From assembly GCF_057098645.1 (NCBI RefSeq), contig NZ_CM169472.1: a stretch of 64,000 bases of DNA; one strand, 5' to 3'. How positions within the stretch are numbered: position 1 is the stretch's first letter; each line of letters opens with the position of its first letter. The notes beneath the pieces are model-generated. The model had not been told where the DNA came from. It saw only the letters and a list, made by a program, of their open reading frames with translations, and did no database searches. Below are positions 53,402 through 62,254 of this stretch, one piece after another. The translations under genes were made by a program, and so were the position numbers.

Positions 53402-53608
53402 TTACGGACGGGACTGTGCAATACGCGCCTGCAGCCAGGCTTCCACTTCGCTTTTCAGCCATCGGGAGCTGCGGCCCATTTTGATGGGCGCAGGAAAGTC
53501 ACCATCCTTGATGAGTTTGTAAAACCACTTATCGGTCAGGCCGGTCAGTTGAGTGATAAATGCCATGTCGACCATCTGGTCATCCATCAGTGAAACTGGG
53601 GTGATCAT
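53402..53608 (-). CDS. AlpA-family phage/island transcriptional regulator (excisionase-like HTH)
   Basis: ...MAFITQLTGLTDKWFYKLIKDGDFPAPIKMGRSSRWLKSEVEAWL... matches the AlpA/Phage_AlpA pattern; exact start ambiguous among several in-frame ATGs. Confidence 0.7.
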   Translation of the reverse strand: MITPVSLMDDQMVDMAFITQLTGLTDKWFYKLIKDGDFPAPIKMGRSSRWLKSEVEAWLQARIAQSRP

Positions 53609-54255: not shown

Positions 54256-55821
54256 ATGTCCAGAAAGAGAAAATCCAGGAGCACTATGGAAACCTGTTTT
54301 AAGATCCTTCAGCTCAAGTTCGACAAGAAGCTGACTAACCGTTGTATCGGACTGACGTTACACATCAGCGCCTCAACCGTTTTTGAGGTTCTTGCCCGCT
54401 TCAAAGCCTCTTCTCTGTCATGGCCATTACCTGCTGATATATCCCATGACACGCTGGAGAAACTCATTTTTCCGCCCAAAGACACCTTTGCATCAGAGCT
54501 TGTAATGCCTGACATGTTGTACTTCGATACGGAAATGAGAAAACCAGGTGTGACGCGGCAACTGTTGTGGATGGAATACAAGGCACAGGCGGGTAACAAA
54601 GCGATGGGATACTCGCACTTCTGCCGTTGCTACCGGGAGTGGAAAAAAACGCGACGTCTCTCCATGCGCCAGGAGCATCGTGCCGGCGAAAAGCTTTTTA
54701 TCGACTTCTGTGGTCCTACGGTTCCTGTTATTAATCCGGACACCGGTGAGATACGCCGCGTGGCAATCTTCGTGGCCGTAATGGGGGCGTCCAACTATAC
54801 CTACGTTGAAGCGTGCGAAGGTCAGGACATGATGTCATGGTTAAATGCCCACAGCCGTTGCCTGACCTTCCTGGGCGGCGTACCGAAGCTGCTCATCCCC
54901 GATAACCTCAGAAGCGCAGTGAAAAAGGCCGATCGATATGAGCCTGTCATCAACGACAGTTATCAGGCACTGGCTGAGCACTATGGCACGGTTATCATCC
55001 CGGCCCGACCACGCAAACCTAAAGATAAACCAAAAGCAGAAAACGGCGTCCTCATCGTTGAACGATGGCTTCTTGCCCGCATCCGTAATGAAACCTTCCA
55101 CACGCTCAGGGCGCTGAATGCGCGCCTTAGGGAGTTACTGACAGACATGAATAACCGGCCAATGAAGGGGTACGGCAATCAAACCCGTGCAGAACGCTTC
55201 CGCATACTGGATGCGCCAGCACTCTCTCCGCTGCCTCTGGCACCTTATGAATACACGGAATACAAAGCTGTGAAGGTTGGCCCTGACTACCACGTTGAAT
55301 ATGCCCGTCACTGGTACTCCGTTCCACACGAACTGGTCGGTCAGCGTCTGTCACTGAAGGCGGGGCAGTCGGTGGTACAGCTCTGGCACAAGGGGCAGTG
55401 TGTGGCGCAACATCCGCGCAGCACACATGAATATAAACACACAACCAATCCGCTTCACATGCCAGAGCGCCACCGGCAGCACGGGACATGGACACCGGAA
55501 CGCCTGATCGAGCAGGGAAAACGTACGGGCCCGTCCACAGGCCGGGTGGTTGAATCCATGCTGAAGGCAAAACCCCATCCGGAACTGGCTTATCGTGCAG
55601 TTCTGGGGCTGCTGGCACTTCAGAAAAAATACGGCCCGGAACGGCTGGAAAAGGCCTGTTACGTTGCCCTGCACTATAACGCCCCTGACAGACGCTTTAT
55701 CGACAATCTGCTGCGTCACCATCGGGAGAACCTGGAGCTTCCATTATCCCGCCAGGGCGAACAACATCCGGCATATGCTTCAGAGCATGAAAACCTGCGT
55801 GGTCCGGGCTACTACCACTGA
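54256..55821 (+). CDS. istA: IS21-family transposase IstA
   Basis: 521 aa from MSRKRKSRSTMETCFKILQLKFDKKL...; HTH plus DDE domain. Confidence 0.8.
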   Translation: MSRKRKSRSTMETCFKILQLKFDKKLTNRCIGLTLHISASTVFEVLARFKASSLSWPLPADISHDTLEKLIFPPKDTFASELVMPDMLYFDTEMRKPGVTRQLLWMEYKAQAGNKAMGYSHFCRCYREWKKTRRLSMRQEHRAGEKLFIDFCGPTVPVINPDTGEIRRVAIFVAVMGASNYTYVEACEGQDMMSWLNAHSRCLTFLGGVPKLLIPDNLRSAVKKADRYEPVINDSYQALAEHYGTVIIPARPRKPKDKPKAENGVLIVERWLLARIRNETFHTLRALNARLRELLTDMNNRPMKGYGNQTRAERFRILDAPALSPLPLAPYEYTEYKAVKVGPDYHVEYARHWYSVPHELVGQRLSLKAGQSVVQLWHKGQCVAQHPRSTHEYKHTTNPLHMPERHRQHGTWTPERLIEQGKRTGPSTGRVVESMLKAKPHPELAYRAVLGLLALQKKYGPERLEKACYVALHYNAPDRRFIDNLLRHHRENLELPLSRQGEQHPAYASEHENLRGPGYYH

Positions 55822-55837
55822 CAGAAGGAACAACAGT

Positions 55838-56593
55838 ATGAGTGATAACCTGTTAAACAAACTGACCCAACTGAAACTCCCGGCGATGGCCGGGAGCCTG
55901 ATACGGCAGCGGGAAACGCCTCAGACCTACGACGAACTGTCGTTCGAGGAAAGGCTGACGCTGCTGGTTGATGACGAGCTTCTGAGCAGGGAAAACAGCC
56001 GTGTGGCACGGTTGAGAAAAAATGCCGGCCTGAAATACCAGGCAACACCGGAAGGGCTGCGCTATCCGGCCTCAAGAGGTCTGCGGGCTGAACAGATGAG
56101 AGAACTGCTGAACGGCCACTACATAACCCACAGGAAAAACCTGCTGATAACCGGTCCGACAGGATGTGGCAAGAGCTGGATAGCCAATGCGCTGGGCGAA
56201 CAGGCATGTCGACAGAAACACAGCGTCCGGTACTGTAGAACCGGGCGATTACTGGAACAACTGGCTCAGGGACGTGTTGATGGCAGCTGGCTGAAATATC
56301 TGAAACAGTTGCAAAAAATACAGGTTCTAATCCTGGACGATCTGGGGCTGGAACAGTTAAGTAACGCCCAGTGTAATGACCTTCTGGAGCTCATAGAGGA
56401 TCGTTACGGACAAAGCAGCACGATAGTGGTAAGCCAGTTCCCGGTAGATAAATGGCATGGTCTGATGGAGAACCCAACAACAGCAGATGCCATCCTGGAC
56501 AGACTGGTACATAACTCACACCGAGTGGTCCTTCAGGGAGAGTCACTGAGGAAAAATCCCCCGGTAGTGGAAAGCAGCGAAAAAACGCGTTAA
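55838..56593 (+). CDS. istB: IS21-family helper ATPase IstB
   Basis: MSDNLLNKLTQLKLPAMAG...; Walker A GPTGCGKS; AAA+ IstB-like. Confidence 0.85.
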   Translation: MSDNLLNKLTQLKLPAMAGSLIRQRETPQTYDELSFEERLTLLVDDELLSRENSRVARLRKNAGLKYQATPEGLRYPASRGLRAEQMRELLNGHYITHRKNLLITGPTGCGKSWIANALGEQACRQKHSVRYCRTGRLLEQLAQGRVDGSWLKYLKQLQKIQVLILDDLGLEQLSNAQCNDLLELIEDRYGQSSTIVVSQFPVDKWHGLMENPTTADAILDRLVHNSHRVVLQGESLRKNPPVVESSEKTR

Positions 56594-57568
56594 AAAGCGG
56601 TAGAAAAAGTTAAGTTCCCGGTTGATCGAATGGATGCGAATCGCTGATCGGACTTCGATGCCAATCCGTGATCGAATAGAGCGGAATACGCAGGCATGAT
56701 GAGAACGCAGTAGCAACAGACTGCGCTATCCCTGATAGCTGGCGTATAACCTGCGTATATAAAACGTACCAGCAACGCACGTGAACAGAGTGCATTAAGC
56801 ATCCGTCGTTGACACCGACCTGGTGAGTGACAGTCTGAGAGACCGGTTAAGTGGTGGTACGGGAGTAATGAGTTTGGGGAGGGTACCAGAATGTCAGTCT
56901 GGTACGGTATGCTGACAGTATCACGTTAATTGCAGCATAAAGTGATGAGAGGCTAATGGAAGTTAAAACCAGAGCAGTTCCGTCGTTGTTCATCCCGGGA
57001 GACACTGGAAAAAGTGATTTCCCACACGCGTTATAAGCTTACTCTAGCGGAGATGGAAGCCTTCAACTCTGCGGTCGATCACCGACTGGCAGAACTGACA
57101 ATGAACAAGCTTTACGATCGTGTTCCCGCTTCAGTCTGGAAATATGTCATCTGAGCGTTCGGTAATCACAACTGCATCGCGCCAGGTGTTATCCGCTTTG
57201 TGATTCTTATTGGCTCTTCTCAGGTTATTAAAAGCTGAATATGTTCCTGTTGTCGGGAACCAGGATAATACCGGGAACGTTAAGCGGTATAGCGACAACA
57301 AAGAATTCGAAATCAAAAGGGAATGGTGCCGGAGGCGTGGGCGGTAATGGGCTGATTTTCAGGTATTACCGGCTTACAGCGTGTGGTTGATATTGAGGGG
57401 CTGTGAGTTTCACGTATTTGTCAGAAACCCAGACGAGTTTTCCTGTATGAGACGAAATAAGGCAGCGGCAATACATGGAAAAATTTAATATGCTATGAAG
57501 GAGAACCTGTCGGTTACGCTTAATATAACCGGTACACTGTCAGCTCAGGGGATACATGAACCGTTATC

Positions 57569-57973: not shown

Positions 57974-58543
57974 ATGACCTACAAATACAACCCCTTCTGG
58001 CAGCAACGTATTCGTGAGACGGTGCGGCACGCACTGGATGTTCATCCCCGCCTGACGGCATTGCGGGTTGATCTGCGTCTCCCGGATGTACCGGCAGCAA
58101 CGGACGCGGCTGTGATATCCCGCTTCATCAATGCCCTGAAAGCCCGAATCGACGCTTACCAGAAACGTAAGCATCGGGAAGGTAAACGCGTGCATTCCTC
58201 GACCCTGCATTACGCCTGGGCCCGGGAGTTCGGGGAGCTTAAAGGCAAAAAACACTATCACCTGCTGCTGCTGGTCAACCGGGATACCTGGTGTCGTGCC
58301 GGCGATTACCGCGCTCCGGGGTCACTGGCCGGAATGATTAAACAGGCCTGGTGCAGTGCCCTGGGGGTGGATGCCGGATGTTATGCCACGCTGGTGCATT
58401 TTCCGGTCAGGCCGGCGGTGTGGCTGGAACGCGATGATGAAACCGGCTTTCAGCAGGTACTGGAACGTGCTGGCTATCTGGCGAAGGAGCATACCAAAGC
58501 TCGCGGCACCGGTGAGCGCAACTTTGGCTGTAGCCGGAGTTGA
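57974..58543 (+). CDS. YagK/YfjJ (inovirus Gp2-like) family protein
   Basis: 189 aa; N-terminal MTYKYNPFWQQRIRETVRHALDVHPRLTALRVDLRLP resembles the YagK/YfjJ family found in CP4-type islands (from memory); Shine-Dalgarno present. Confidence 0.5.
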   Translation: MTYKYNPFWQQRIRETVRHALDVHPRLTALRVDLRLPDVPAATDAAVISRFINALKARIDAYQKRKHREGKRVHSSTLHYAWAREFGELKGKKHYHLLLLVNRDTWCRAGDYRAPGSLAGMIKQAWCSALGVDAGCYATLVHFPVRPAVWLERDDETGFQQVLERAGYLAKEHTKARGTGERNFGCSRS

Positions 58544-58795
58544 ACACGACAGACGCGCCAATACCCGGCAAACCAAAAGTATGGGTTGTTGTCTGGTGGC
58601 AACGATGTATCCACTCGCCCACTGACTGTTTTTTACGTCAGTGTTCCATTGTGTGACAACCACAATGCTGTAACAGCAACCAGCCTGCTTTACCCAAACT
58701 CCAGTCCAGATTTTAACTGAACCGCCATTCACACCTGACCACGCTGCCCGTACCGGGACGGCTGTTGCCTGCGTGTCGTCTGGCGGCTGAGGAAT

Positions 58796-59203
58796 ATGAC
58801 TATGTACGCAAAATCCTTTCTCGCACTTGATGGCAACGGGCGTCTGACGGGTGCCCGTACCGCACAGACTGCACCTTACGATCGCTACACTTGCCACCTT
58901 TGCGGCAGTGCACTCAGATACCACCCGCAATACGACACTGAGCGTCCCTGGTTTGAACACACTGACGACGGGCTGACAGCGCACGGTCAGCAGTGTCCTT
59001 ATGTCAGACCGGAACGCAGGGAGATACGCTTGATTAAGCGTCTGCAGCAATTCGTACCGGATGCCTTACCCGTGGTGCGTAAAGCCAGCTGGCACTGCAG
59101 ACAATGTCACCACGATTATTATGGGGAGCAGTACTGCACAAACTGCCAGACCGGAGGATTCAGTATTCCCCGGACAACTCGGGAGGAAATATGCGAATTC
59201 TGA
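58796..59203 (+). CDS. Cys-rich putative zinc-binding protein, paralog A
   Basis: 135 aa; CHLCG...PWFEH and WHCRQCHHDYYGEQYCTNCQTGG motifs; GAGGA Shine-Dalgarno. Confidence 0.55.
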   Translation: MTMYAKSFLALDGNGRLTGARTAQTAPYDRYTCHLCGSALRYHPQYDTERPWFEHTDDGLTAHGQQCPYVRPERREIRLIKRLQQFVPDALPVVRKASWHCRQCHHDYYGEQYCTNCQTGGFSIPRTTREEICEF

Positions 59204-59625
59204 ACTGTTATATGGCGAATGACAGCAAGGGGCATTTTGTTACGGCGAAAGAAGCAGCGAAGCACAACCGCCGGGACGTTTTGTGCTGTGTGTCCTGTGG
59301 ATGCCCGTTAACACTTCAGCGGGGCAATGACGGACAACAACCGTGGTTTGAACATGACCAGATGACTGTCGCTGAGAAAATCCTGCTGCGATGCACCTGG
59401 CTTGACCCGGCAGAGAAAGAGGCCCGTCGTTTGCATCTGCAGGGTATGACAGTTCTGGATTATACGGTGAAGGTGAGAAAGTGGTTTTGTGTGATGTGTG
59501 ACGAAGATTATGAAGGAGAAAAGTGCTGCCCGCGTTGTGGTACCGGGGTATACAGCAGGGCGTGGGGGCGGCAGGATGTGCCGTCGGAAGATGCCAGGGC
59601 TGATAATCCGTTACAGAGGTTGTAA
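59191..59625 (+). CDS. Cys-rich putative zinc-binding protein, paralog B (translationally coupled to A)
   Basis: 144 aa from ATG 59191 (GGGAGG Shine-Dalgarno); shares CxxCG...PWFEH and W.C..C.(D/H)DY.GE..C..C.TG motifs with paralog A; 13-nt overlap with A. Confidence 0.55.
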   Translation: MRILNCYMANDSKGHFVTAKEAAKHNRRDVLCCVSCGCPLTLQRGNDGQQPWFEHDQMTVAEKILLRCTWLDPAEKEARRLHLQGMTVLDYTVKVRKWFCVMCDEDYEGEKCCPRCGTGVYSRAWGRQDVPSEDARADNPLQRL

Positions 59626-61012
59626 TGGTTGCCTCTGGCGCAGTTTGCGGTGATGCCGTTCCCGGGAATGGATTGCCAGTGCGGGGACTGTGGAGCTTAA
59701 TTCCGGTGTTGGTGGCCTTTCCGTTGATTTTGAGCCAACAGCCCTCCTGTGACTGACAGGCTGCCTCGTCATTCCATACGTATCTTCAGGTGAACAGATG
59801 CATGTCTGAGCGTACTCACGCAGCCGGCCCGGCAACCGCGGTGGTACTACGCTGGCTGCGAGAAAATACAGAAAGCACCAGAATACGCTCTCCTGTTGCT
59901 GATCAATCAGGATCTCATGCACCTACCGGGATCTAGGGCTAGAACTGATGAAACCGATTCGCACCTGGCTGAGTTAATGCTACAGGCCAGGGCATCACTA
60001 CCCCCTGACGAGCACTGTACTGTGGTATGCAGTTACAGGGGGCGTGTGCAGCCACACCTGAAAGCAGTGAGTCGTTCACGGCATTCAAAAACACGTGCCT
60101 TTCGTTCGCCGTTCCTGTGATGGCCGGCATCATTTGCTAAGCCGTTACCGACGTTATTCCCTCCGGGACACGCCTCTGGTTGAGGCTTTGCCCGGAGCAA
60201 TCGAATGAAAATAAGTTAAGTCACCGAAAGGGAGGATGTAGTCAACCGGGGGAACAGTAATAAGCCGTCGTGCTTTTATCGTACAAGTGTGTTGCGTTTT
60301 GCACCGAAAATACGATAGAGGTCGTTTATGGATTCCGCAGGGAGTGCTGATTATTATTCACTGGCAGCAGACAGCGATGTGTGTGCAGGCATTCAGGGGG
60401 ATGTTGTCAGCAGAAGGGTGCGTATAGCAGATTGTTGTTATACATGGCGTATGAAGTATTACCAGTCATGCGGAGTAGTGTGGTGAGGGGCTGTATGAGA
60501 AATCGCCACCTTCTTGTCAGAGAGGGAACGCTACCATGAAAGTCAAAAGCGATAACGCAGACCGGTACGATCGGTAGGTAAAACTGTAGCGGTGTGCTGC
60601 CGCCGAGGTCAGAATAATCTGCGCGTTTTTACGCCAGCGCCACCGACGAACAGCAGGAGATTGAGGGGAATTTGGCGGCGATAAAGACGTAGAAGAGAAA
60701 AACGGGCAATTTGCCGCATGCCCACAGAATCAGTGAGATCGTTAGCGACAGCAAAATGATCGGCAGCCAGCGGCGGCCTGCAATATCGGGATGAAGGAGA
60801 TCCTACGATATCGATGCTGCACCTGATATGTACGATCAGTAAATAGAGTACGAAACAGCAAACACGACGATAATAACGCTGGCAGCGGTGCCTGTCAGGC
60901 AAACGCCCACACGCAATAAAATAAATCAACCATCGCAGGGCCGTGATCATCCGCATACACCGCTGATGACGCGTCTAAAAACGCGTCAATATGACTTCCC
61001 CGGAACATTACC

Positions 61013-62254
61013 TCATTTCAGGGTATGGAGAATTTTTAACATCGAGTTATCTATGGTCTGTTTGACTTTTTCGTAATAGATCGGTTCAGATAATGACGAA
61101 TCCCAGGTATGAATATCGTTCTTATTAAAAGGAATGCATTTCATGGCTACTGCCTTTAACTGTTTCCCTTTTTGCTCATACTCATTGATATCATTAATGG
61201 TAAATTTCAAACTCTCTTTTCTTGCTTCTGTTATTTCAGTTGGGCATACCAGCTTTATATCTCCTAAGGTAAATGTACTGACCCCGGTGATGAAAAATCT
61301 CTCGGGGATTTCTGTATAGTGCCGAGTATTCCAGATTAAGCCATTAAACATACTATGAGAATGAGTTTTATTTTCGATATAATACTGATGCGTTCTCCAG
61401 TCACTAATGCCTGAGAGACTCATTACCATATTAATGATCATATTTGGGATAGGGCGATACCACATACTGAATACAGTAATTACAACTGGTATGCATATTA
61501 AAACAACTATGAATCCAGTGAATTTATCACCATTTCTGCGCTCATTAAGATGTATGGCACCAGGCAGAATGCCAATAGTAACAATAGCTGCTGTTAAGGC
61601 AAGGAGCATTAGCATTTCAACCAAATCACTTGTCTCCTCACTAAAATCAAGTTGGGTAAGCAGAAATAACATAGGTAATATTTGAACGATCCCGGGAGTC
61701 ATAAATTGCAAGGGTAAAAAACATAACAATCCTGGTTTTCTTGGTAATTTCTCATAGTTATCAGATTTATGCCAACTAAATCTCTTTGTTTTAAATAGAT
61801 TAAAATAGGATACAAAATAACTAAAAGCAAGCATCAATACAAAACCGGTGATACTTATGGAATAACCATTCCATCCATAAAGATAGTAAATATAGTAGCC
61901 AACAATTATACTACAGCATATAAACAAGCTATTTAGATAACAAACAGTGGAAATTCGATGTGGTATGCTTGGATAATTTTTGAAATTATCTTCATGTAAT
62001 GTGTAAATGAGGATTAGAATAAAAGAGGAAATGAAAATTACTAAGCTAAACCCAGAAAACGATACTATTATAAAAACAAAAATGATACCTATGGCTGAAC
62101 TGAGGCTTACAGTATCAAAGAAAATATCTAATCTATCTATGTTTGACAGATAGAACCATATAACAGCCATTGTGCATCCAGTAATAAATGTAGATGAGGT
62201 TATTACTGAAATAATGAATTTTTTATTCAACAGCTTTATGACAGATTTATTCAT
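61013..62254 (-). CDS. AT-rich polytopic membrane protein with C-terminal soluble domain (unknown function)
   Basis: 413 aa; multiple predicted transmembrane helices in the N-terminal roughly 270 aa, hydrophilic C-terminus; codon usage and base composition visibly AT-rich compared with flanking DNA. Confidence 0.6.
   Translation of the reverse strand: MNKSVIKLLNKKFIISVITSSTFITGCTMAVIWFYLSNIDRLDIFFDTVSLSSAIGIIFVFIIVSFSGFSLVIFISSFILILIYTLHEDNFKNYPSIPHRISTVCYLNSLFICCSIIVGYYIYYLYGWNGYSISITGFVLMLAFSYFVSYFNLFKTKRFSWHKSDNYEKLPRKPGLLCFLPLQFMTPGIVQILPMLFLLTQLDFSEETSDLVEMLMLLALTAAIVTIGILPGAIHLNERRNGDKFTGFIVVLICIPVVITVFSMWYRPIPNMIINMVMSLSGISDWRTHQYYIENKTHSHSMFNGLIWNTRHYTEIPERFFITGVSTFTLGDIKLVCPTEITEARKESLKFTINDINEYEQKGKQLKAVAMKCIPFNKNDIHTWDSSLSEPIYYEKVKQTIDNSMLKILHTLK

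Follow-up and report, generated by a model that had tools for sequence, protein, structure and literature searches.

An overlapping pair of putative zinc-ribbon genes in the backbone of enterobacterial genomic islands and its association with a Gp2-like HUH gene

Proteins combining the Pfam domains DUF7828 (PF25165) and Zn_ribbon_11 (PF11682, formerly DUF3279) form an already catalogued family, and the two overlapping genes described here, which we call znrA and znrB, encode ordinary full-length members that differ in no respect from the others. The genes lie within positions 58796 to 59625 of a 64,000-nucleotide (nt) stretch of contig NZ_CM169472.1 (NCBI RefSeq assembly GCF_057098645.1), hereafter the window. 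In itself, the pair represents a catalogued domain-of-unknown-function family and holds no unexpected biology. What our analysis adds is the conserved set of ligand residues, the evidence that the A/B pair is old and, like its overlap, conserved, the linkage to an HUH-type gene at loci with flanking sequence, and one natural fusion.

Beyond the family itself, four described systems resemble the locus in part. The gene II/X/V replication module of Inovirus (filamentous phages) shares with the locus a layout in which small-protein genes come after a Gp2-type HUH nickase-like gene on one strand. One such small protein, gpV of the Ff phages, is a single-stranded-DNA-binding protein that also regulates gpII. 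Znr proteins, however, share neither sequence nor fold similarity with the OB-fold protein gpV, and the island carries no phage structural genes, leaving an analogy that is positional only. Ogr of P2 and Delta of P4 are likewise small four-Cys zinc proteins of P2/P4-type elements, with P4 Delta consisting of a tandem duplication of an Ogr-like unit, but no similarity to them was detectable, the Cys spacing is different, and Znr proteins possess an extra Cys2-His-Cys (CCHC) domain. Zinc domains attached to HUH nucleases, such as the N-terminal domain of IS91-family transposases, join a Cys-rich zinc module to an HUH nuclease, an arrangement matched by the single fused homolog; Znr proteins are normally separate polypeptides, and no Zn_Tnp_IS91 homology was detected. 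CoiA has been described as an endonuclease of the PD-(D/E)XK type that acts on single-stranded DNA and bears a small zinc finger at its N-terminus (bioRxiv 10.1101/2024.02.06.579203). The ligand pattern of the Znr N-domain resembles that of this finger (a CxxC, an aromatic-F-x-H element, and a further Cys in a small beta-rich N-terminal domain), whereas Znr proteins lack the nuclease and the CoiA C-terminal region and carry a four-Cys ribbon instead, and their genes reside on islands, in linkage with an HUH-type gene and not with competence genes.

Two paralogs with conserved predicted zinc sites

A sequence-only reading of the window had proposed that the two adjacent open reading frames (ORFs) are paralogs sharing a CxxC...PWFEH motif and a W-x-C-x2-C...C-x2-C motif, and both parts of this proposal were borne out. 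Pairwise alignment by BLASTP gave 33% identity across 120 residues (E = 1e-15), and the similarity between ZnrA and ZnrB is therefore not due to chance. The motifs read C33-x2-C36...PWFEH55...C67 and W99-H-C101-x2-C104...C114-x2-C117 in ZnrA (residues counted from ATG 58796) and C33-x2-C36...PWFEH55...C68 and W98-F-C100-x2-C103...C113-x2-C116 in ZnrB. DUF7828 was matched by residues 4-89 of ZnrA (E = 6.1e-31) and 4-88 of ZnrB (E = 3.1e-30), and Zn_ribbon_11 by the C-terminus of each protein (E = 3.4e-9 and 1.2e-18, respectively). ZnrA and ZnrB have the same sequences (100% identity) as the proteins that RefSeq lists under WP_000271016.1 and WP_001221627.1, respectively, with the names 'putative zinc ribbon protein' and 'zinc-ribbon domain-containing protein'. 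The ORF list places the first ORF at 58796-59203 (135 aa), on the same strand as the second. Translation of znrA most likely begins at the second ATG (58802) and not at ATG 58796, because the putative ribosome-binding site GAGGA is spaced 8 nt from the former and only 2 nt from the latter, orthologs open with MYAKSF, and RefSeq uses 58802.

The shared motifs proved to be conserved well beyond this genome. Among 37 full-length homologs that are 22-81% identical to ZnrB, all of which carry both DUF7828 and Zn_ribbon_11, the residues C33, C36, F53, H55, C100, C103, C113, and C116 (ZnrB numbering) were invariant, and C68, W98, and G109 were conserved in at least 90%. The outcome that would have refuted the sequence-only reading, a lack of motif conservation among homologs, was thus not observed. 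Comparison of four E. coli alleles differing by 3-10% at the DNA level yielded ratios of nonsynonymous to synonymous substitution rates (dN/dS) of 0.15-0.26 for znrA and 0.04-0.25 for znrB, with comparisons spanning the alternative C-terminal tail of znrB excluded. These low ratios indicate purifying selection, which argues that both are real genes.

An AlphaFold model of ZnrB computed from the 37-sequence alignment (predicted local distance difference test score [pLDDT], 87.6) contains a beta-rich N-domain (residues 1-70) with C33, C36, H55, and C68, a helix (73-86), a three-stranded C-terminal ribbon (96-124) with its four Cys, and a disordered tail. As modeled, a Znr protein is built from an N-terminal CCHC site and a C-terminal four-Cys (CCCC) ribbon and not from two equal ribbons. 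This refines the tandem zinc ribbons suggested by the sequence-only reading: the C-terminal half has the pattern of a classic four-Cys ribbon (Zn_ribbon_11), but the N-terminal one holds a predicted Cys2-His-Cys site embedded in the ~85-residue DUF7828 domain and is not an equivalent ribbon. The ligand residues predict that Znr proteins bind metal. A Foldseek search with the ZnrB model gave nothing below E = 0.8 in the PDB, and the 50 matches listed from AFDB50 were all family members from Enterobacterales. Sequence and profile searches of the PDB with the full-length protein and the N-domain returned only insignificant matches to generic zinc knuckles (BIR domains, Rpb12/RpoP, and L37ae/L43).

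The 13-nt overlap of the two genes and the GGGAGG element ahead of znrB, both pointed out earlier, were confirmed (Table 1), and the overlap recurs in other genera. Together with the presence of a dedicated Shine-Dalgarno sequence inside znrA, the overlap would be the arrangement of a translationally coupled pair. The A-type proteins also have a short conserved Cys-bearing end (..EEICEF, ..EVTECVC, and ..EVTACAC; window positions 59192-59200 and loci L005, L016, and L020) that is missing from the B-type proteins.

Distribution and age of the pair

The 830-bp pair matched 3,790 of the 5,426 complete E. coli genomes (~70%), in a median of two and a maximum of seven places per genome, and copies spanning 80% or more of the pair occurred in 2,979 of the complete genomes, where annotation mostly shows two intact genes. 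The znr pair is among the commonest uncharacterized gene sets in E. coli, often present in several copies, and it is part of an island backbone whose cargo covers virulence, iron uptake, and defense. The occurrence of homologs as tandem pairs in other islands, a check put forward with the sequence-only reading, was found in Salmonella, Klebsiella, Serratia, Trabulsiella, and metagenomic elements. Identities of the A-type and B-type proteins were 76% and 51% in Salmonella diarizonae (L005; overlap, 13 nt), 63% and 50% on a Klebsiella IncF plasmid (L020; overlap, 13 nt), 55% and 45% in Serratia oryzae (L006; overlap, 10 nt), 48% and 34% in a metagenomic element (L017; overlap, 1 nt), and 63% and 48% in Trabulsiella (L007; no overlap, with a gap of 60 nt). 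The metagenomic elements L024 and L025 also contain an A-then-B pair, which in L024 does not overlap and is separated by 51 nt.

Across genera, A-type orthologs are thus 48-76% and B-type orthologs 34-51% identical, whereas A and B within one genome share ~30%. Since each type is closer to its counterparts in other genera than to its partner in the same genome, the duplication is old and both copies have been kept. An old and retained duplication fits a division of labor or a hetero-complex, as judged from these comparisons. More distant islands (L010, L011, and L014) have just one copy, equally far from A and from B.

An exhaustive profile search of 1.84 billion representative proteins gave only 270 matches at E <= 1e-3, many of them fragments. 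In two listings of relatives, one of them the AFDB50 matches, all named sources were Enterobacterales. The few odd source labels met in other searches, a Veillonella metagenome-assembled genome (MAG), Pseudomonas aeruginosa, and a Collinsella MAG, are attached to sequences that share 94-99% identity with the E. coli protein, which makes contamination the probable cause. Searching genome contigs with a profile from a shallower alignment found six loci. Scans of ZnrA and ZnrB against NCBIfam, PHROGs, and PADLOC gave nothing significant. Shuffling of domains between the paralogs seems frequent, as judged from the protein sequences: P0041 joins a ZnrB-type N-domain to a ZnrA-type C-domain, the set P0033-P0053 includes a group with a different N-domain (MNGIKTGLG...) on a ZnrB-type C-domain, and P0071 (238 aa) bears an additional N-domain ahead of a complete B-type protein.

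Homology between E. coli islands often ends at about window position 59576, within the last ~15 codons of znrB (~59560-59625), and znrB has two alternative C-terminal tails, ...RAWGRQDVPSEDARADNPLQRL and ...REGGLQEGNWKDRN, followed by different insertion sequence (IS) elements or cargo. A homology break inside the last znrB codons places the junction between backbone and cargo within the disordered tail of the gene. In E. coli K-12, no znr or gp2-like genes were found on searching the cobU-proximal end of CP4-44 (L019, 2066020-2078748). The cobU-adjacent site holds gp2-znrA-znrB in other strains (L023) and IS5 with the pseudogenes yoeG and yoeH in K-12.

Linkage to a Gp2-like gene and functional interpretation

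The genes znrA and znrB belong to the conserved backbone of widespread integrative islands of Enterobacterales, both tRNA-inserted ones with a P4-type integrase and CP4-44/CP4-57-like ones, in which they form a module with an AlpA regulator and a YagK/YfjJ protein. A YagK/YfjJ-like ('inovirus Gp2 family') ORF lies just upstream of znr on the same strand in every examined locus with an available upstream flank, a set covering E. coli, Salmonella, Trabulsiella, Serratia, a Klebsiella plasmid, metagenomes, and three IMG/VR contigs; several of these upstream ORFs that bear no Pfam label are YagK-like by profile (E of ~1e-24). The linkage spans ~14 independent lineages, with Znr identities down to 22%. 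Usually, alpA stands beside or between the gp2-like and znr genes, and it was called in all metagenomic and plasmid loci; the gene orders observed are gp2-alpA-znr, alpA-gp2-znr, and, in E. coli, alpA(inverted)-hha-gp2-znrA-znrB. The Gp2-like protein of the window matches YagK_YfjJ_C (E = 5e-46) and REP_ORF2-G2P (E = 2.8e-5), and its best match to a Rep protein in the PDB has an E value of 0.56. The elements RxD, HYH, and YLxK are invariant in seven diverse YagK/YfjJ proteins (with window 57974-58543, L003, L010, L011, L014, and L016 among the sources). They correspond to the motif set of HUH rolling-circle initiators, and the Gp2-like protein is a putative nickase. In the literature on 'inovirus Gp2', the gene is only listed as unknown.

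In one family member, P0166 (454 aa; L003, 2797-4161), a Znr protein and a Gp2-like domain are naturally fused, the latter being recognized by hhalign (probability, 96.9%; E = 1.8e-10). A Serratia oryzae match in the AFDB (466 aa) is close to P0166 in length. In Klebsiella (L020, 9493-10059) and Salmonella (L005, ~6284-6976), a second, separate Gp2-like gene directly follows znrB; it has lost the HUH histidines, reading CKM in the Klebsiella copy, and is followed in Klebsiella by a DUF2913 gene. Downstream of znrB in the window, there is neither a second Gp2-like gene nor a DUF2913 gene.

Because of the conserved gp2/znr linkage, the fusion in P0166, and a faint CoiA-type similarity, we tentatively favor the interpretation, at a probability of roughly 40%, that Znr proteins are non-enzymatic zinc-binding accessory subunits that cooperate with AlpA and the Gp2-like HUH protein in the excision, replication, or mobilization of the island. 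ZnrA and ZnrB would be co-expressed from a single transcript through coupled translation and would act jointly, probably as a hetero-oligomer. They could serve as zinc-dependent DNA-binding subunits, possibly binding single strands, or as adaptors, and may target or regulate the Gp2-like nickase during these processes. The paralogy, domain content, ligand residues, purifying selection, gene order and overlap, and the one fusion are supported directly; metal binding, complex formation, nucleic-acid binding, and a link to nicking or replication are inferred. The association with the gp2-like gene and AlpA, together with the fusion, provides a testable hypothesis for three 'unknown' backbone genes and for the replication and movement of the islands. 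An extended version of this interpretation is rather unlikely in our estimation: a zinc-dependent ZnrA-ZnrB hetero-complex would recognize an island site or coat its single-stranded DNA, recruit or control the YagK/YfjJ nickase, and form with AlpA a previously unrecognized rolling-circle replication or mobilization apparatus. If true, such an apparatus could explain how the highly prevalent Enterobacterales islands of the CP4-44/CP4-57 type amplify and move without conjugation or packaging genes.

Several points weigh against the accessory-subunit interpretation. The predicted isoelectric points (8.1 for ZnrA and 7.5 for ZnrB; family medians, ~7) indicate a near-neutral charge that is atypical of strong DNA binders, and the PDB and Foldseek searches revealed no recognizable DNA-binding fold in the Znr proteins. 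The fusion comes from a single short metagenomic contig, and its Gp2-like domain lacks the HUH histidines (FLH and not HYH). To our knowledge, no YagK/YfjJ protein has ever been shown to be enzymatically active. Gene neighborhood in the backbone of a mobile element can mean shared inheritance and not joint function. A literature search on the DUF7828/Zn_ribbon_11 (formerly DUF3279) family and its WP accessions found nothing relevant. In addition, znrB is interrupted in L005, L007, and L009, and only one copy is found in more distant islands, so that a strict A/B heterodimer is not the universal form and the pair is not indispensable everywhere.

Other explanations account for parts of the same evidence. 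The small size and Cys richness of the proteins, their location in islands that carry AlpA and a P4-type integrase, the duplication of the znr genes, which echoes that of P4 Delta, a weak match of the N-domain profile to the Rpb12/RpoP zinc ribbon (E = 0.06-0.2), and the mislabeling of the family as 'RNA polymerase subunit' in databases would all suit small zinc-finger transcription factors like Ogr or Delta, which would activate genes of the island or a helper phage by contacting RNA polymerase. We regard this explanation as improbable. Pfam Ogr_Delta was not seen for ZnrA, ZnrB, or P0166 (E <= 10) or for the 37 members (E <= 0.1), the Rpb12-type matches are insignificant and reflect a generic zinc knuckle, and the family is nearly absent from viral sequences, with no PHROG match, no tblastn match in 50,697 phage records, and only three loci in 2.9 million viral contigs (IMG/VR). 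It is similarly doubtful that Znr proteins are protein-binding anti-defense, defense, or addiction modules, for example, inhibitors of a host or phage factor or a toxin-antitoxin-like pair, with adjacency to the nickase-like gene reflecting backbone linkage only. An overlapping operon of two small proteins, near-neutral charge suited to protein-protein contacts, and a position at the backbone/cargo junction are in line with this explanation, given that the cargo often includes defense genes (KwaA, type I restriction-modification, and SMEK/CTD10/DUF2326) and that the backbone carries antirestriction (ArdB/KlcA), RadC, and CbtA/CbeA-type genes. Yet neither Znr protein nor the Gp2-like protein matched any PADLOC model, the two members are paralogs, a relationship seldom seen between toxin and antitoxin, and single-copy forms are common in distant islands; moreover, the genes occupy the conserved part of the island and not the variable cargo, and the fusion to a Gp2-like domain indicates a nickase-like partner.

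The likeness to CoiA raised by the sequence-only reading is weakly supported. Sub-threshold matches to CoiA_N (PF25164) over the CxxC...FxH stretch occurred in 9 of the 37 members at E <= 0.1, none at E <= 0.001 (best, 1.3e-3), with E values of 0.52 for ZnrB and 0.1 for P0166, and the related family DUF7830 gave sub-threshold matches in 8 of the 37 (best E, 3.2e-3). A distant relationship of the Znr N-domain to CoiA_N is plausible on the strength of these repeated weak matches. Membership of Znr proteins in the CoiA family is ruled out: the PD-(D/E)XK nuclease domain (PF06054) was absent from all Pfam scans of ZnrA, ZnrB, and the 37 members, and the 133-144 aa are fully covered by the two zinc domains. 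That Znr proteins are truncated CoiA relatives directly processing incoming or recombining single-stranded DNA is accordingly very unlikely, even with a CxxC...(W/H)F(E/A)H...C pattern that resembles the CoiA zinc finger and one UniProt homolog named 'Competence protein', as every CoiA_N match lies below significance and the genes are island-borne in Enterobacterales without known CoiA-dependent transformation. Finally, decaying or spurious ORFs could be suspected from the many fragmentary database entries, the interruption of znrB in some elements, and the lack of znr genes at the K-12 CP4-44 site, but this suspicion is effectively refuted already by the dN/dS values, the eight residues invariant across 22-81% identity, the number of complete E. 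coli genomes retaining at least 80% of the pair, and a gene order kept across genera.

Layout of the locus and its surroundings

The coordinates of the pair and of the neighboring genes are given in Table 1. The window consists of E. coli DNA; its znr module is 99.8% identical to that of E. coli O145 strains, and the island of the window is associated with tRNA-Phe and carries a fec operon and a gentisate operon. Beyond the module, the island backbone comprises a GTPase, an antirestriction gene, DUF932, RadC, and the integrase, and cargo (ars, fec, Kiwa, type I restriction-modification, and SMEK/CTD10) starts directly after the znr genes.

Table 1. Positions of the znr genes, their predicted sites, and neighboring genes in the window
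Feature	Position	Strand	Size	Remarks
znrA	58802..59203	+	133 aa	A-type paralog, DUF7828 + Zn_ribbon_11; 135 aa from ATG 58796
znrB	59191..59625	+	144 aa	B-type paralog, DUF7828 + Zn_ribbon_11
znrA/znrB overlap	59191-59203		13 nt	
GAGGA, putative ribosome-binding site of znrA	58789..58793	+		8 nt before ATG 58802; from sequence
GGGAGG, putative Shine-Dalgarno sequence of znrB	59181..59186	+		Within znrA 3' end, 4 nt before ATG
ZnrA predicted Cys2-His-Cys site codons	58892..58996	+		C33, C36, H55, C67 (including PWFEH)
ZnrA four-Cys ribbon codons	59096..59146	+		C101, C104, C114, C117
ZnrB predicted Cys2-His-Cys site codons	59287..59394	+		C33, C36, H55, C68
ZnrB four-Cys ribbon codons	59488..59538	+		C100, C103, C113, C116
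YagK/YfjJ ('inovirus Gp2 family') gene	57974..58543	+	189 aa	Directly upstream of znrA; HUH-Rep-like signature
AlpA-family helix-turn-helix (HTH) gene	53402..53608	-	68 aa	tblastn with Klebsiella AlpA, 72% identity; RefSeq: HTH regulator
Hha/YmoA-family small gene	57014..57154	+		ORF; RefSeq annotation of identical region
Small ORF with CxxC...CxxC, then hydrophobic C-terminal helix	57569-57772	-	67 aa	Between Hha-like and gp2-like genes
IstB-like ORF of IS21-type insertion	55595-56593	+		Parts alpA from hha-gp2-znrAB

In the window, alpA is inverted and separated from the rest of the module by IS21 DNA; the corresponding places in other E. coli copies are occupied by IS3 or IS66. Other E. coli islands conserve the 67-aa ORF as well, and in L022 it is annotated as 'zinc-ribbon domain-containing protein' (WP_001347328.1); going by its sequence, it is a putative third small zinc-ribbon gene of the module. 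Around the module, nothing rose above background in scans for promoters and terminators, in Rfam, or in a search for repeats, and neither a hairpin nor an iteron origin was obvious. For ~1.4 kb after znrB (59626-61012), there is no annotated gene or convincing ORF. The next gene (61013-62254, minus strand) encodes a 413-aa multi-pass membrane protein, annotated as hypothetical in RefSeq, at a GC content of 33-37% versus ~52-59% in the module.

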